From a virus, in IMG/VR virus record IMGVR_UViG_3300025093_000002, positions 28,089 through 92,088 of that record: a stretch of DNA of 64,000 bases, one strand, 5' to 3'. Made by a program: the position numbers and the translations under genes. The notes under the pieces are model-generated. The model did not search any database, was not told the origin of the DNA, and saw only the letters and a program-made list of their open reading frames with translations. Positions 2,875-25,214 of the stretch are shown here, piece by piece. The first letter of the stretch is position 1. Every line of letters begins with the position of its first letter.

Positions 2875-3176
2875 GCCGCCCTCTCCTGCTCTGAAGCCAC
2901 CTGAACGGCCCAATCGATTGCGTCCTGCGCGCTGCGAAGAATGACCACGTCAGGTCCGCGCCATTTGTCCGCGAACGCCTGCTGGTTCTCGTTCAGCTTC
3001 TTCCCGTAGCCTTTGGCGCTCGACTTCACCTCGACAGGCCAGCAGCGGCCACGGAAGCCCACCAAGGCGTCAACAGGCCGGTCCAGCGGCTCGACGCTGA
3101 ACCCGCACTGGCGCAGCGCCGCGAAGACTTCCTTCTCGGCAACGTCACGGCGCTTGGCGTAGCGGTTCAGGCTCAC
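2871..3176 (-). CDS. Small PD-(D/E)xK endonuclease (VRR-NUC/resolvase-like)
   Basis: PVDALVG...VEVK motif; occupies the slot of RusA in prophage B. Confidence 0.65.
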   Translation of the reverse strand: MSLNRYAKRRDVAEKEVFAALRQCGFSVEPLDRPVDALVGFRGRCWPVEVKSSAKGYGKKLNENQQAFADKWRGPDVVILRSAQDAIDWAVQVASEQERAA

Positions 3177-3227
3177 TCGTCGTTCTCCGTCATTTCGGGG
3201 CAGATCCATGCAGCGAGGCCAGCAGCC

Positions 3228-3623
3228 TTATCTCGCAGCCAGATCGCAATCTTCATCCGCCGTTCGACGCTCAAGAAGCGCACGATAACGGGCGGTCTGT
3301 TCAATGAATGCGGCATGGTCTTTCCTCGCTCTTGAGAGTTTCGCGCGATTGGCTTTCGCCACCTCAGCCGCCCTGTGAAGTTCAAGCATTTCCCGAAATT
3401 CGACGTGCGCGGCTTCCTTGTGCCAGAAGCTTCGGACGCGCCGTTCGGTCCATTGTTTCCGTGGGTCATTGCGGTAGGGGAAAAGCTTGGCGAGCAGCTC
3501 GTAAGCCGTGCCGATGGTGGCTTTGACGTTGCCGCCACCGCCGATTTCCCTGACGTATGACCGTGCCATAGCTACGTCGTGCATGTGCTTCTGCTCGTCC
3601 GTAAACGCGGGTGACTTGTCCAT
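3228..3623 (-). CDS. CII-like/HTH transcription regulator
   Basis: WTERRVRSFW helix; positional counterpart at 53937-54311. Confidence 0.45.
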   Translation of the reverse strand: MDKSPAFTDEQKHMHDVAMARSYVREIGGGGNVKATIGTAYELLAKLFPYRNDPRKQWTERRVRSFWHKEAAHVEFREMLELHRAAEVAKANRAKLSRARKDHAAFIEQTARYRALLERRTADEDCDLAAR

Positions 3624-18864: not shown

Positions 18865-19509
18865 TCAGACACCACGCGCCATCAGGTCGCAGATGACCGA
18901 GGACGGAACGCCGAAGCTCATCCCGACATAGGAACCGCCCATTCCGACCGGAGCGATGCGGGCGCCAACGAAGATGGCGATGACGCGGTTCTTGGCGTCG
19001 TAGACCGGGCCACCGGAAATGCCAGGGCCACCCGAGATGTCCATGACGACGACCGACTTCCACGGCCCCATGGAGCGCGTCTTGCCTGATAGCCAGCCCC
19101 GGAACGAGATGAACTCGACACCGAGCGGGCTGCCGCGCGCAACGAGGCTCGTCCCCTCGGGAATGTCGCCACAGGCAAGCGGAGAAAAGGACAGGCGGCT
19201 GGTGCGCTCGATACGCACGAGGGCCACGTCATAGACCGTATTGACCCAGAGCACTTCGCCCTTGCGGGTGATGCCTCGATCGTCCACAATCTTCGCCGTG
19301 GTTTCCTTGCCGATGACATGGGCGGCGGTGAGAATGTAGCCCCGCCCGATGTGGACGCCGGAACCTTGGCCCATCTGCATCGTTACACGCACGACAGGGC
19401 CGGCCTGCGTCAATGGGACGTCGATGGTCTTGTTCACCGCCACATAGGCAGCGAACGCGGCAAATAGGACGAGGCCGCACAGCATCGCCATGGCGCGCAT
19501 GTTTTTCAT
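18865..19509 (-). CDS. Exported trypsin-like serine protease
   Basis: Signal/TM segment; LTAAH, DVAL and GISGGP triad. Confidence 0.88.
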   Translation of the reverse strand: MKNMRAMAMLCGLVLFAAFAAYVAVNKTIDVPLTQAGPVVRVTMQMGQGSGVHIGRGYILTAAHVIGKETTAKIVDDRGITRKGEVLWVNTVYDVALVRIERTSRLSFSPLACGDIPEGTSLVARGSPLGVEFISFRGWLSGKTRSMGPWKSVVVMDISGGPGISGGPVYDAKNRVIAIFVGARIAPVGMGGSYVGMSFGVPSSVICDLMARGV

Positions 19510-20272: not shown

Positions 20273-20443
20273 TCAGACGCTTTCGTTCCGAACGCCATAG
20301 ACGCCCGCAGCAGTGAGGGCCGAAACGACCAGTTCGAGCACGACCGTATCGAGGCCGAGGATTTCGATTTCCAGATAGCGCAGTGCCATCAGGGCAGAGA
20401 CGCCCGCCAGTGCAGCCACGAATTTCCGATATGGAGCGAGCAT
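20273..20443 (-). CDS. Small two-TM holin-like protein (56 aa)
   Basis: MLAPYRKFVAALAG...TAAGVYGVRN; TGATG-coupled to the endolysin. Confidence 0.6.
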   Translation of the reverse strand: MLAPYRKFVAALAGVSALMALRYLEIEILGLDTVVLELVVSALTAAGVYGVRNESV

Positions 20444-21033
20444 CAGCGTTCCTTTCCGAACAGCTTGAGGATTGCGGCGATGATTGAGGCCCAGAAACCG
20501 CCACGCGGGGCTGCTGGAGCGGGTTTCGGGGTTGGACGGGCTGGCGTGTCCACGCCGTAGCCTTCGGCCTTCAGGAGGGCGTCGTAGCGCTTGGCGATGT
20601 CGGCAATCTCGGCCGCCTTGTCCTTGCCGTTGATGATGCGGCGCGCGTTGACGAAATCGGACTTCTGAAGCGTCATGTAGTCGGACAGCTTCTTGCCGGT
20701 GAACCAGCCGTCCCGAGAGCCGACAACGAGGATTTCCGCCGCATACTTCGGCTCAAGCAGCTTCTTCGGGTTGTTGACGAAATCGACGCCCAACTCGCGG
20801 GTGGCGCGCTTGTAGTTCTCCAGCCAGGTTAGCTGGGCGTAGCCCATCCCGACGTAGGGGTAGTATTTCTTCGACCGCAGATACTTTTCGCCGCCATACT
20901 CGCGAACCGGCTTCATGGTTCGGGCGGTTTCCCACGCGGTTGTAGCCAAAACATATGCGGCTTGGTTTCTTAGAAGGCCATGCTTCTTGCAGGCGTCAAT
21001 AATCAGCCGAGTGTCGCCAATCTCTAGGTTCAA
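20443..21033 (-). CDS. Endolysin, GH19/chitinase-like
   Basis: AYVLAT.AWETARTMKPVRE...GMGYAQLTW..NY; TTG start with AGGAG RBS. Confidence 0.85.
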   Translation of the reverse strand: MNLEIGDTRLIIDACKKHGLLRNQAAYVLATTAWETARTMKPVREYGGEKYLRSKKYYPYVGMGYAQLTWLENYKRATRELGVDFVNNPKKLLEPKYAAEILVVGSRDGWFTGKKLSDYMTLQKSDFVNARRIINGKDKAAEIADIAKRYDALLKAEGYGVDTPARPTPKPAPAAPRGGFWASIIAAILKLFGKER

Positions 21034-21083
21034 AAATCCGTCTCCTATTGATGCTGTCGCCCAACTCTGATAAGCATCTTCGG

Positions 21084-21575
21084 ATGAAGACGATAGAAGA
21101 GCGCCTGTGGGCGAAAGTTGAAGTGCGAGGTGAGGACGAATGCTGGCCTTGGTTAGGCTACAAGCATGCCAATAGTGGACATGGACAAATTGGTCGGGGC
21201 CGTCGAGGCGAAGGCCAAACCTACGTCCACATCGTTTCATGGGAGGTAGCGAACGGTGCCAAGGTTCCGGAAGGCATGTGCGTTTGCCATAGTTGCGACC
21301 ACCCGCCATGCGTGAACCCGAAGCATCTGTTTCTTGGTTCGAAAGCGGACAACACGGCAGATATGGTGAAGAAGCGGCGTCATAAGTTTGGGCAAGACGC
21401 GCCTTGGGCTAGGCTTACCGATAGTGACATCCTTGCTATCCACCATCGTTACGAACAGAAGGCGACCCAGCAGGAAATCGCCCGCGAATTTAAGGTCTCT
21501 CGGTCCCTTGTGGGACTAATCCTTCAAGGGAAGCGCTGGCCACATTTAGCAGTCGCGAGGACGTATGCCGCCTGA
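21084..21575 (+). CDS. HNH homing endonuclease with C-terminal HTH
   Basis: ECWPW...CHSCDHPPCVNPKHL...N; inserted in the endolysin gene. Confidence 0.9.
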   Translation: MKTIEERLWAKVEVRGEDECWPWLGYKHANSGHGQIGRGRRGEGQTYVHIVSWEVANGAKVPEGMCVCHSCDHPPCVNPKHLFLGSKADNTADMVKKRRHKFGQDAPWARLTDSDILAIHHRYEQKATQQEIAREFKVSRSLVGLILQGKRWPHLAVARTYAA

Positions 21576-21643
21576 TTGCGCAGGAGCCCATGCCGCTTGC
21601 AGCATTCGATGATCAGGCGTGTGTCGCCGAGCGCCAGGTTCAT
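21524..21643 (-). pseudogene. Original 5' end of the endolysin, truncated by the HNH insertion
   Basis: MNLALGDTRLIIECCKRHGLLRNQAAYVLATA with AAGGA RBS; duplicates the endolysin N-terminus. Confidence 0.85.
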
Positions 21644-21739
21644 AGGCACTTCCTTTTTCAGTTGTGGGAGAAGCGCGTCAGCTTTTGGGTTGTCGTTAAA
21701 AGAATGACGGCCTAAGAGTTCTCCAAACGGAGAATTCAG

Positions 21740-22915
21740 ATGAAGAAGCTCGCAGCGGTGTTCGCCACCGTTATCGCCATTGTTGCTCTCGCGGGCTTCG
21801 CGAAACCTCAAATCATCAATGCCGGCGACTTTCTGGTTCGCCAGCCGCTTCTCAGCATCCGCGCCGAAATGGCAGCGATTACATCCGAGGTTTCGACCCT
21901 TCGAGCCGAGATGGCGGTTGCATTGGCCCCACCTCCGCCACCCGCCCCTATGCAAGTGCAAGAGGTTGCCGAACCGGCCGTGAGCGATGGGTGGGAACTG
22001 GTCACTGATGACGCCCCATTCCGCCCCCGCGATGGGTCTTTCGTCGCGTCCTTCAAGGGCTACCTTTGGCTTGGCAATGGCTGGCCGGGTTCTTCCGACA
22101 ACATGCCGACTTCAATCTGGCGTTCCCGCGACGGCAAGGATTGGGAGCGTGTCGTTGACAATGCCCCGTGGAAGGGCCGGCACATCGGCAACTTTGTCGT
22201 CCTCAATGACCGCATGTACATGTACGGCGGCGACAACATGACCGACGTCTGGTCATCCGCCGATGGGATTAACTGGCAGCTCGAAATAGCAGAGGCACCG
22301 TGGGGCAAGCGCTATAACCCCTACATGGGCGCGTTCAACGGCAAGCTCTGGCTGATGGGCGGGCAGAACGAACACTGGACCGGCGCCTATAATGATGTCT
22401 GGTCTTCTGTGGATGGCAAGACGTGGGTGCGCGAGGTTGAGAACGCGCCGTGGCCGCGTCGTAGCCTAGTCTCCGGGTTCGCGGTTCACGACGGGCACAT
22501 GTGGGTTATGGGCGGCGGAAGGAAGATACCCGACCCGCGCTGCAATGGATGCGGCCAGACCATCTATGACCTGAACGATGTCTGGAAATCCGCAAACGGC
22601 GTCGATTGGGAACTCGTCATTCCCCGCGCTGAATGGGCACCCCGAACGCATATGAGTGTGGTCGGCTACGACGGCAATCTTATCGTGACCGATGGCTCTG
22701 TCGGTACGCAGGCGGGCATGTCGAGCGAAGCATGGTTCTCGAAAGACGGTATCGAGTGGCACCCTATCGGCGGCATCCCTGACCAGAAGTTCAGCCCCCG
22801 CCATGCATCAACGCTGGTTGAGCACGACGGGACGCTGTTTATGGTGACGGGCTATCTTCGCAACGATGTCTGGAAGCTGAACCCGGAAGCTCTTACCGTG
22901 CCTCCAACGCAGTGA
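21740..22915 (+). CDS. Exported Kelch-like beta-propeller protein (moron)
   Basis: Signal peptide; about six repeats of W..V...APW..R...WxxGG...DVW.S.DG. Confidence 0.75.
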   Translation: MKKLAAVFATVIAIVALAGFAKPQIINAGDFLVRQPLLSIRAEMAAITSEVSTLRAEMAVALAPPPPPAPMQVQEVAEPAVSDGWELVTDDAPFRPRDGSFVASFKGYLWLGNGWPGSSDNMPTSIWRSRDGKDWERVVDNAPWKGRHIGNFVVLNDRMYMYGGDNMTDVWSSADGINWQLEIAEAPWGKRYNPYMGAFNGKLWLMGGQNEHWTGAYNDVWSSVDGKTWVREVENAPWPRRSLVSGFAVHDGHMWVMGGGRKIPDPRCNGCGQTIYDLNDVWKSANGVDWELVIPRAEWAPRTHMSVVGYDGNLIVTDGSVGTQAGMSSEAWFSKDGIEWHPIGGIPDQKFSPRHASTLVEHDGTLFMVTGYLRNDVWKLNPEALTVPPTQ

Positions 22916-25214
22916 GGCGTTTGCGCACGTTCCGTGCCTCGTGCATCAGCACGGCAACGATGCGCTCGTACATCAGGCCTTCTATGTTTTCCTTCTTGAA
23001 CGAACCATCTCCGCCATAGTGGACGAGGAAGTGCAGGCCGGCGTCATGGAAATGGTCAGCCGCCAAGCCGATGTAGAGCCGCCTCGTCTCGTCGTTCTTG
23101 GCGCTATAGATGAAGCCAACCATCCCAAGCACGGCATCGACTATCTCGTCTGTGATTTCGCCCTCGACGTTCTTGTGTTTCAGCGCCGAGGTCGAGCGGG
23201 CAAGCAGGCCGTCAGTCCCCACGAACACGTTTGCGGCGGCAGCGGTCGTTTGGCTATAAACGATAGGAGAATAGAACACGCCGTCGTGCCTGATCTCGAC
23301 CATCTTCGTCCCGGCGCTATTTTGCCAGATCGTGGATGTGCTGCCCGAGCTACCGCTCAACTGGATAACATTGGGGATACGGTCGGGATAGCGCGCCGTG
23401 ACGTTCAAATTAGTGTCAACAAGCAGACAGTTTCGCGTCGTGATCTTGGAAACACCCGCCCCTGTGAACCCAAGGCTCACATTGTCCGAGAGCCGCACGC
23501 TGTCGAAATCGGACGCGACGACATTCGAGAACAACTCCACATGCCGCCAAATGCCGTTGATGAACTTCTGCCCCTGTCCGCCCAGGGAGGCCGACGGGCT
23601 GGAGCTGGACGACTGCGAACGGCAATTGATCCATGTCGTCCCATTGCCCTGGTCGGACACGTCGCGGGTGCTGTTCGCCTCCATCCAGACGGAGATAAAG
23701 CAGATGTTATCGCAATCCGCGCTGACGAAGATGCCTTCGTTCACGGCCTCCGGCGTACCGCCCATGAACTGACAACCGCGCGCGTTTTTGCAGTAGTAGC
23801 CGGTCCCGTTGAAGCCTTCCATGATGGCGTTGATGAACGTGCAGTCCGCCGTGTAGTAGGCCGCATCGCCATCATTATCGAGCGTCAGGCCATAGCTCGG
23901 CTCGGTCGTGAATGCGCCGTAGTTGTCGGAACAAACGAGGTTGTTGAAGACTGCGGCCACGCAGTAGCGAACATGGATTGCGTACTGCGTGCATTCCCGC
24001 GCTTCGATGTGGTCAATCCAGCAGCCCTGCGCCAGGCCGCGCAACTCAACGGCGGTCGTGATGGTCGGGCTACCGATGACGCGGACCTTGCCCATCGTCT
24101 TGAAGTCGCGGATGACGGCACCAGCCGTTTCAATCGGCGTCGACAGCTTCAAACCAACGCCGGACCCGACAAGCTGAATAACCGGCTTGCCGACGAACTG
24201 GACAGTAAGGCCATTCGCACCGAGGTTCGTATTGGCGTTGACTGGATATGCGCCCGCACCTTCCGCCATGATGATGTGCTTTGCGCCATACCCAGCGAGC
24301 GCGAGTGAGCGAGCAGCAAGAAGCGCCGTCGTGGTGGCCGAAGCATCGCCCGTATCACCGGAGGCCAGCGCGCCAAACCAACGCACGTCAAAGCCCTGAA
24401 TAGCCCATGAGCCGACGCGCACCCACGCTCCAGCCGAAGCCGCAATTGCGTCAGCCTTGATGAACACGCCTTCCTGCGGGTCAGCGGTGATGTGGGCGCT
24501 ATAGTCGCCAGCGCGCCAGACGAACTGCCCTTCGCGGCCAGTCTCGTGCAGGAAGGCAAACATGTCCTTTGTCGTATCGAGCGCCTTGAGAGCCGTCCGC
24601 GTCGCGATATAAACGGGTGTGTCGAGCCTGTCGCGCACGTCGTCGTAGCCTAAAGGTTCGAAGGCAGTGCCTGCTGAATTGCGATGCAGGAACCGGCTTG
24701 CCGTCGTCGGCAGGGTTTCGGCACCGTCAGACACAGCCGCATTCTCGATCCCATTCGCGTTGGCGTTCCAGCGCAGCACTTTCCCTGCCTCGGGGTCCGG
24801 GTAGGTCAGGCTCGAAAGCGAGGACGACTCCTTGAACAGGATGGCACGGTTCAGCCTTTCCTCGCGCCGCTGGATCAGCATCGTCAGCTTGTCGAGCGCG
24901 CGTTCATGGCTGGAGGCCGGGAACGGGTCCTGGTTGTTGTAGGCCGTCAACTGCGTGGTTGGCGGGTCACGAACAATAACGACGGTCGTACCGCTTGCCG
25001 GGGCCGTAACGAACGTCACCGTGCCGCCATTTGGGTTCCCCGCTCCCGAAACGGTGTAGTGCGTCCCCAGCGTCTGCACCGTATCGACGCCGGCCGAACT
25101 GCGGACGATCACGCGCAGATCGCCATTGACGAGGAAGTAGAAATTGACGCTGAACGCGGTGGTCGTGCCGTCGCCGGAATAGCTGATGCGCGAGACGCTG
25201 GATTGAACCGTCAT
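22893..25214 (-). CDS. Tail spike/fibre: T7 gp17-like N-terminus, beta-helix depolymerase, C-terminal chaperone-like domain
   Basis: YSGDGTTTAFSVNFYF...HERALDKLTM; DVRWFGA; STSALKHK...YERIVAVL. Confidence 0.85.
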   Translation of the reverse strand: MTVQSSVSRISYSGDGTTTAFSVNFYFLVNGDLRVIVRSSAGVDTVQTLGTHYTVSGAGNPNGGTVTFVTAPASGTTVVIVRDPPTTQLTAYNNQDPFPASSHERALDKLTMLIQRREERLNRAILFKESSSLSSLTYPDPEAGKVLRWNANANGIENAAVSDGAETLPTTASRFLHRNSAGTAFEPLGYDDVRDRLDTPVYIATRTALKALDTTKDMFAFLHETGREGQFVWRAGDYSAHITADPQEGVFIKADAIAASAGAWVRVGSWAIQGFDVRWFGALASGDTGDASATTTALLAARSLALAGYGAKHIIMAEGAGAYPVNANTNLGANGLTVQFVGKPVIQLVGSGVGLKLSTPIETAGAVIRDFKTMGKVRVIGSPTITTAVELRGLAQGCWIDHIEARECTQYAIHVRYCVAAVFNNLVCSDNYGAFTTEPSYGLTLDNDGDAAYYTADCTFINAIMEGFNGTGYYCKNARGCQFMGGTPEAVNEGIFVSADCDNICFISVWMEANSTRDVSDQGNGTTWINCRSQSSSSSPSASLGGQGQKFINGIWRHVELFSNVVASDFDSVRLSDNVSLGFTGAGVSKITTRNCLLVDTNLNVTARYPDRIPNVIQLSGSSGSTSTIWQNSAGTKMVEIRHDGVFYSPIVYSQTTAAAANVFVGTDGLLARSTSALKHKNVEGEITDEIVDAVLGMVGFIYSAKNDETRRLYIGLAADHFHDAGLHFLVHYGGDGSFKKENIEGLMYERIVAVLMHEARNVRKRLTALEAR

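Follow-up and report, generated by a model that had tools for sequence, protein, structure and literature searches.

The endolysin gene of the phage genome analyzed here very probably carries a composite homing element that moves without splicing, made up of a gene for an endonuclease with an HNH_3 domain and a probable helix-turn-helix domain and of a foreign, presumably resistance-conferring version of the first 33 lysin codons with its own ribosome-binding site and start codon. The cassette sits at codon 32/33 of a GH19-like endolysin gene. The virus record is 92,088 bp long, has direct terminal repeats and a completeness score of 100%; the window, a stretch of 64,000 nucleotides, corresponds to its bases 28089-92088, and positions below are those of the window unless a contig is named. 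The GC content of the phage genome is 0.61, and the nearest named relatives of the lysin belong to alphaproteobacteria of the Rhizobiales type and to marine and soil metagenomes. Across the whole 92-kb genome, the duplication of the lysin start was the only local direct repeat at the protein level, and the HNH_3 gene at 21048-21575 was the only HNH gene of its family.

The anatomy of the locus was as described in the initial annotation, in which the original lysin start is cut off by an antisense HNH gene (Table 1). From its ATG the orphan ORF reads through 32 lysin codons and then through 7 codons that are unrelated to lysin and correspond to the antisense of the HNH 3′ end, before reaching a stop. 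Conversely, the last codons and stop of the HNH gene were also correctly traced to the antisense of the old endolysin sequence: the final 8 codons and TGA of the HNH ORF (21549-21575) are the antisense of orphan-copy lysin codons 24-32. On the far side of the HNH gene, an AGGAG sequence (21042-21046) and a TTG at 21033 open a 196-codon ORF that ends at 20443 and repeats the lysin start.

Table 1. Features of the interrupted lysin locus in window coordinates, with the evidence for each
Feature	Position	Strand	Evidence
Native leader with ribosome-binding site before the orphan start	21644-21676	-	21676-21549 vs L125, 91.4%; 21671-21548 vs L126, 93.5%
Orphan stub ORF (39 codons; ATG 21643, stop 21524-21526)	21524-21643	-	Read from sequence
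Native lysin codons 1-32 within the stub	21643-21548	-	Agrees with the N-terminus of P0001
Inserted cassette, 613 bp (HNH gene, spacer with ribosome-binding site, foreign lysin codons 1-33)	20935-21547		Four-way alignment with HNH-free alleles
HNH_3 + putative helix-turn-helix endonuclease gene (ORF of 175 aa), antisense to lysin	21048-21575	+	Pfam and PHROG matches
Spacer with AGGAG ribosome-binding site (21042-21046), 8 nt before TTG	21034-21047	-	Read from sequence
Foreign replacement copy of lysin codons 1-33, TTG start 21033	20935-21033	-	Diverged from L125/L126; low GC3
Native lysin body, codons 34-196 and stop	20443-20934	-	92-93% nt identity to L125/L126

The two copies of the lysin start were compared with each other and with the rest of the locus. 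Of the 32 codons, 8 are the same in both copies, 17 show synonymous differences and 7 encode a different amino acid (counting the start codon), for a nucleotide identity of 69%; the replacement copy retains 26 of 32 residues, or 25 of 31 when the start codon is set aside, with no change in the conserved stretch of residues 18 to 31. BLASTP between the two flanks of the HNH gene gave E values of about 1e-14 to 1e-19, which is not chance. The codon pairs listed in the initial annotation were correct, and the in-frame copy is AT-richer at third positions, with a GC3 of 0.53 vs 0.78 in the orphan copy; GC3 was 0.81 in the lysin body and 0.585 in the HNH gene. Overall GC content is 0.49-0.55 in the cassette, vs about 0.58-0.62 in its flanks.

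HNH-free alleles, for which a search had been proposed with the initial annotation, were found. A protein search returned a 196-aa HNH-free lysin (P0001) that is 92% identical and whose N-terminus resembles the orphan copy, unlike the in-frame copy. The contig encoding it (L125) and a second one from a metagenome scan (L126) have no insert, are continuous across the site and carry no HNH gene near the lysin; L126 and the window have flanking genes in common, at 81-92% nucleotide identity. In a four-way alignment with these alleles, the orphan copy tracks the native sequence from about 30 nt before its ATG as far as codon 32, the third base of which is 21548, and then gives way to the HNH 3′ end. 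The in-frame copy shows no relationship upstream, remains divergent up to and including codon 33 (20935) and resembles the native sequence from codon 34 onward. Both junctions lie at the same codon, and the insert is therefore 20935-21547 (613 bp). Identity to L125 and L126 is 91-93.5% for the orphan copy and leader, 66-69% for the in-frame copy and 92-93% for the gene body. Among 46 allele pairs with a body identity of at least 0.80, every pair other than that of the window has a 5′ identity of 0.80-1.00, and comparison of 5′ and body identities among HNH-free alleles gave no clear earlier replacement besides the window. The orphan copy is native and the in-frame copy is foreign.

When the stub was compared with L125 over 32 codons, 22 were identical, 9 differed synonymously and 1 non-synonymously, with no frameshift; the insertion therefore seems to be recent compared with the divergence from these relatives. 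The pattern of identity and GC3 indicates that the replacement start came with the endonuclease gene from a source of lower GC content. The second copy had been called recoded, but "foreign" is the better word for a segment with the composition of the HNH gene rather than that of the phage. It has the appearance of a divergent allele brought along by the element, and not of a copy respelled in place. The best match to the replacement 5′ end in any fetched locus was 77-78% (BLASTN). No donor of the cassette was found: identities reached at most 46% in viral contigs, for which the HNH protein and an HNH alignment served as queries, and at most 46% in genome contigs.

Several other features of the region were recorded. 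ATG 21309 opens a 288-codon ORF (20443-21309, -) that shares the lysin frame and extends across the complement of the HNH gene. The interval separating the tail-fibre gene (22893-25214) from the lysin contains, on the opposite strand, a gene for a 391-aa Kelch-repeat (beta-propeller) protein (21740-22915, +); this gene looks like a swapped module, because L126 has a non-homologous 434-aa opposite-strand ORF at the same position. Small overlapping ORFs follow the lysin gene, and directly 3′ of these small lysis-cassette ORFs lies a trypsin-like serine peptidase ORF (18865-19509, -; Pfam Trypsin_2, 3e-20), which has a hydrophobic segment at its N-terminus and is kept in L126 and in a further locus described below (L129). 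A sub-threshold Rfam match to a CRISPR repeat inside the HNH gene (21497-21521, +; 24.8 bits, gathering score 36, E 0.04) is present as a single copy and is probably due to chance. A promoter scan gave no sigma-70-like site for the HNH gene or the lysin, and a terminator scan gave one terminator-like site, which is below the number in shuffled sequence.

The assignment of the interrupted gene rests on several matches. The 196-aa lysin, including the replacement start, matched PHROG 181 (endolysin) at 5e-31, and its closest annotated phage matches are endolysins. Against Pfam Glyco_hydro_19 it scored 18.4 bits, below the cut-off of 25.5, and among PDB sequences it weakly matched GH19 chitinases and the endolysin 4ok7 (E 5e-4 to 2e-3). 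Codon positions 1 and 2 at the insertion site are conserved at 0.91-1.00 across 46 unique alleles, and the site lies just before an invariant glutamate, which we take to be catalytic from general knowledge of GH19 enzymes. Homing endonucleases typically target conserved, functionally critical coding sequence.

The HNH gene is an intact ORF that looks functional, and nuclease activity is predicted for its product. It matched Pfam HNH_3 at 36.8 bits (cut-off 24.8), with helix-turn-helix matches just below their cut-offs (Sigma70_r4, 22.2 vs 24.1), and the conserved His, Cys and Asn columns were all present in alignments of 10 and 14 relatives. In an AlphaFold model (pLDDT 84), the nuclease domain aligned best with I-PpoI (1a73; Z 7.8, rmsd 4.3 over 97 residues) and I-HmuI (1u3e; Z 7.5, rmsd 3.0 over 88 residues), and residues 113-175, the C-terminal domain, aligned with the helix-turn-helix domains of resolvases and transposases (Z about 6). 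These Z values are middling, and the model only agrees with the Pfam result. A sequence search of the PDB with the HNH protein gave no match, and Foldseek matches were weak. The closest HNH protein in the protein search was 61% identical. Close homologues of 159-163 aa begin at a residue matching ATG 21084, which is therefore the likely HNH start, although the start is uncertain; homologues also end right after a W-x-H-L/I motif, so the 8 extra C-terminal residues come from the stub. Three relatives (P0123, P0127 and P0131) end in an A-R/S-T-stop tail that is the antisense coding of the lysin motif.

The splicing-free homing strategy put forward in the initial annotation is supported by the HNH-free alleles, the precise insert, the lack of an intron family match, the antisense nuclease, the cassette's own start signals and the recurrence of the layout. 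In the cycle that we propose, the endonuclease would, during mixed infection, nick or cut an HNH-free lysin allele within the conserved motif-coding stretch, codons 26-35. The break would be repaired using the element-bearing genome as template, with one side pairing through the orphan native 5′ end and its leader, which is probably the left homology arm, and the other side pairing through the lysin body, so that the entire cassette would be copied into the empty allele. After insertion, the lysin would be translated from the TTG of the cassette, and the old start would persist as the 39-codon stub that provides the last codons and stop of the HNH gene. The carrier should be immune to its own nuclease, because the uninterrupted native site is restored at neither junction.

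This cycle also suggests a rationale for a position inside a gene. Upstream of the leader of about 30 nt, the window cannot be aligned with its relatives, so that an intergenic element would often have no left arm; the intragenic position would guarantee homology on both sides. The low identity of the two copies of the lysin start should limit deletion of the element by recombination between them.

The same layout was found at the same site in other contigs. In a 56-kb contig (L129), a stub ending after about codon 30 is followed by an antisense gene for a 226-aa HNH protein (56% amino acid identity), whose last codons and stop likewise come from the antisense of the stub, and by a full lysin (69% identical). 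The two lysin-start copies of L129 are 63% identical, with 16 synonymous differences, and its lysin and stub proteins (the stub as P0248/P0250) are recorded on 6-7 contigs. In an AT-rich contig (L154), a stub ending after about codon 34-35 is followed by a sense-strand ORF of 152 aa and then by a full lysin, whose ATG overlaps the stop of that ORF. The 152-aa product matched PHROG 3322 ("endonuclease", 5e-34) and an endonuclease VII family and is unrelated to the HNH protein. Short database proteins resembling lysin residues 1-40 provided further stubs: P0256 breaks at the L129-type point in a different allele, P0246 and P0254 are of the L154 type and P0255 is window-like. Stub ends thus vary (after codon 32 in the window, about 30 in L129 and about 34-35 in L154), and the presumed cut site and the insertion point may therefore not coincide exactly. 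When phages in GenBank were queried with the lysin, the HNH protein and the 37-residue N-terminus, no record with two copies of the N-terminus was found; the closest lysin of a cultured phage there is 56% identical.

A search for HNH genes flanked by duplicated gene starts had also been proposed initially. The flanks of 237 loci with relatives of the window HNH were screened for duplications, with filters for strand, identity and entropy. In addition to the window and to L129, which shares its layout, four HNH_3 loci with duplicated gene ends were obtained. At L104 (1611-3498), a Dda/RecD-like helicase ORF (1611-2996) that ends in a conserved helicase motif is followed by a same-strand HNH_3 relative (2998-3444), the ribosome-binding site of which lies within the last codons of the helicase; directly after the HNH gene, at 3448-3498, lies an orphan, synonymously respelled copy of the last ~15 codons of the helicase. 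L104 is a mirror-image case of the window layout. At L214 (742-2039), a small transglycosylase-like gene (742-1263) and an HNH relative (1294-1872) precede an orphan copy of the gene's last ~54 residues (61% identity), which ends at 2039. The remaining two loci, L348 (2114-3917) and L321 (2150-2975), are in actinobacterial genomes and have an HNH relative at the catalytic-tyrosine motif of a tyrosine integrase, the C-terminal segment of which is duplicated; in L321 the HNH ORF continues in frame into the orphan copy, and in L348 an antisense HNH gene overlaps the orphan copy beside a tRNA-like region.

This recurrence bears on the reading of the locus as a one-off scar, according to which the free-standing HNH gene of a donor, located upstream of its lysin, was captured by one-sided illegitimate repair of a break, the duplication being accidental and without a role in mobility. 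Illegitimate repair is plausible as the origin of the first such element, the junctions shift by a few codons between cases and no donor with the same cassette was found. Against these points, the layout is seen again in several diverged alleles and with two nuclease families that are not related to each other, both junctions in the window lie at the same codon and, among the loci examined, none had an HNH gene immediately upstream of an unduplicated lysin. We therefore regard a scar as unlikely.

There is little to recommend the idea that the lysin was inactivated by the insertion and is decaying, with host lysis achieved by other means. TTG is a weaker start than ATG, but the ribosome-binding site is strong and the ORF is full length, its 196 aa being the same as in the HNH-free P0001. 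Over 150 codons of the body compared with L125, 116 are identical, 26 differ synonymously and 8 non-synonymously, and the body is, on these codon counts, under purifying selection. The replacement copy has kept its 26 of 32 residues, with none of residues 18 to 31 changed, and the record is 100% complete with terminal repeats.

It is highly improbable that assembly joined two lysin alleles of a mixed population: the record is a metagenome-derived virus genome, but a chimera of two alleles would not have an intact, precisely bounded HNH gene separating its two copies, and the same layout was assembled independently in L129 (with its proteins on 6-7 contigs) and in L154.

In favor of splicing, endolysin genes of some Staphylococcus phages contain group I introns encoding HNH endonucleases. 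Were the interval a self-splicing intron, or its product joined at the protein level, the orphan start would still be the real lysin start. A ribozyme core and joinable exons, the features of a group I intron, were not found: a search of Rfam over 20300-22000 gave no intron family at E values up to 1 and only two sub-threshold chance matches, the would-be exons repeat the same 32 codons, the nuclease is antisense, the orphan ORF stops after its 7 unrelated codons and the downstream copy has a ribosome-binding site and start of its own, all of which leaves this explanation hardly credible.

The homing element that we favor in place of these alternatives was compared with known systems. WHO elements, which occur at FBA1 in Torulaspora and Lachancea yeasts, consist of a nuclease gene and a resistance-conferring gene end, with an orphan fragment as recombination site (Coughlan et al., 2020; PMC7282813). 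As in our reading of the window, one end of an essential gene is replaced, the orphan native end is a homology arm, no splicing is involved and the replaced end has an evolutionary history at odds with that of the remaining gene. WHO elements differ in replacing the 3′ end, for which no new start signals are needed, in encoding an intein-like LAGLIDADG and zinc finger nuclease and in inhabiting a meiotic eukaryote, whereas the window element replaces the 5′ end, supplies a ribosome-binding site and start codon, encodes an antisense HNH nuclease and resides in a phage genome.

Mitochondrial mORFs (Allomyces atp6; Glomus atp6, atp9, cox2 and nad3) have native C-termini that are 91-98% identical to relatives and inserted ones that are 64-81% identical (Beaudet et al., 2013; PMC3630166), values nearly the same as those in the window (91-93.5% for the native against 66-69% for the inserted copy). 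Here too, an endonuclease ORF lies in a coding region, accompanied by an in-frame duplicate of foreign origin and by an orphan copy that is native. Unlike the N-terminal window element with its antisense HNH gene, mORFs affect C-terminal ends, lie on the same strand, are often fused in frame and encode a different nuclease family. The nucleases of these gene-end-replacing elements, WHO elements and mORFs, are of the LAGLIDADG, GIY-YIG or WHO type; the window element would work like them but is not a member of either group by descent.

Among phages, the Seg and Mob genes, mobE and the MobA / gene 60 cassette of T4-like phages are free-standing HNH or GIY-YIG genes (PMC2988022; PMC2790892; bioRxiv 10.1101/2022.08.31.505936). 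They resemble the window element in spreading by break repair with diverged flanking sequence, and MobA lies in a topoisomerase gene as part of a cassette. They differ in being intergenic or in splitting the host gene into two translated pieces, and in the texts examined, no duplicated, replaced gene end is described for them. The His-Me finger enzymes I-HmuI and I-PpoI share with the window HNH protein, by alignment of its model, the HNH_3 domain, a zinc-binding loop and a putative DNA-binding tail; they are intron-encoded, with a sequence identity of 12-18%. Full-text literature searches and the texts examined on phage homing did not yield a phage example in which a gene end is duplicated and replaced, whereas published examples of the design exist for yeast and for fungal mitochondria.

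The arrangement would represent a third route by which a homing endonuclease can reside in an essential phage gene, with neither an intron nor an intein, by bringing a spare, differently spelled start of the gene. That the same solution has been reached in yeast and in fungal mitochondria at the other gene end points to convergent evolution. The native and replacement sequences are a ready pair of presumed sensitive and resistant targets with which the specificity of an uncharacterized HNH family can be examined. The layout accounts for the presence of short orphan ORFs, for TTG starts that would not be expected and for gene ends of discordant ancestry, and it is a warning for annotation, as gene callers could pick the 288-codon ORF from ATG 21309 over the 196-codon lysin from TTG 21033, or report a truncated gene. 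Taking the loci together, we lean toward the view that they represent an undescribed and widespread class of phage homing elements that insert near either end of a gene and bring a diverged replacement end, with start signals if that end is the 5′ one, and for which the active-site motif of GH19-like endolysins is a hotspot used by at least two unrelated nuclease families. If so, phage genomes would regularly acquire chimeric gene ends and short orphan ORFs from elements of this kind.
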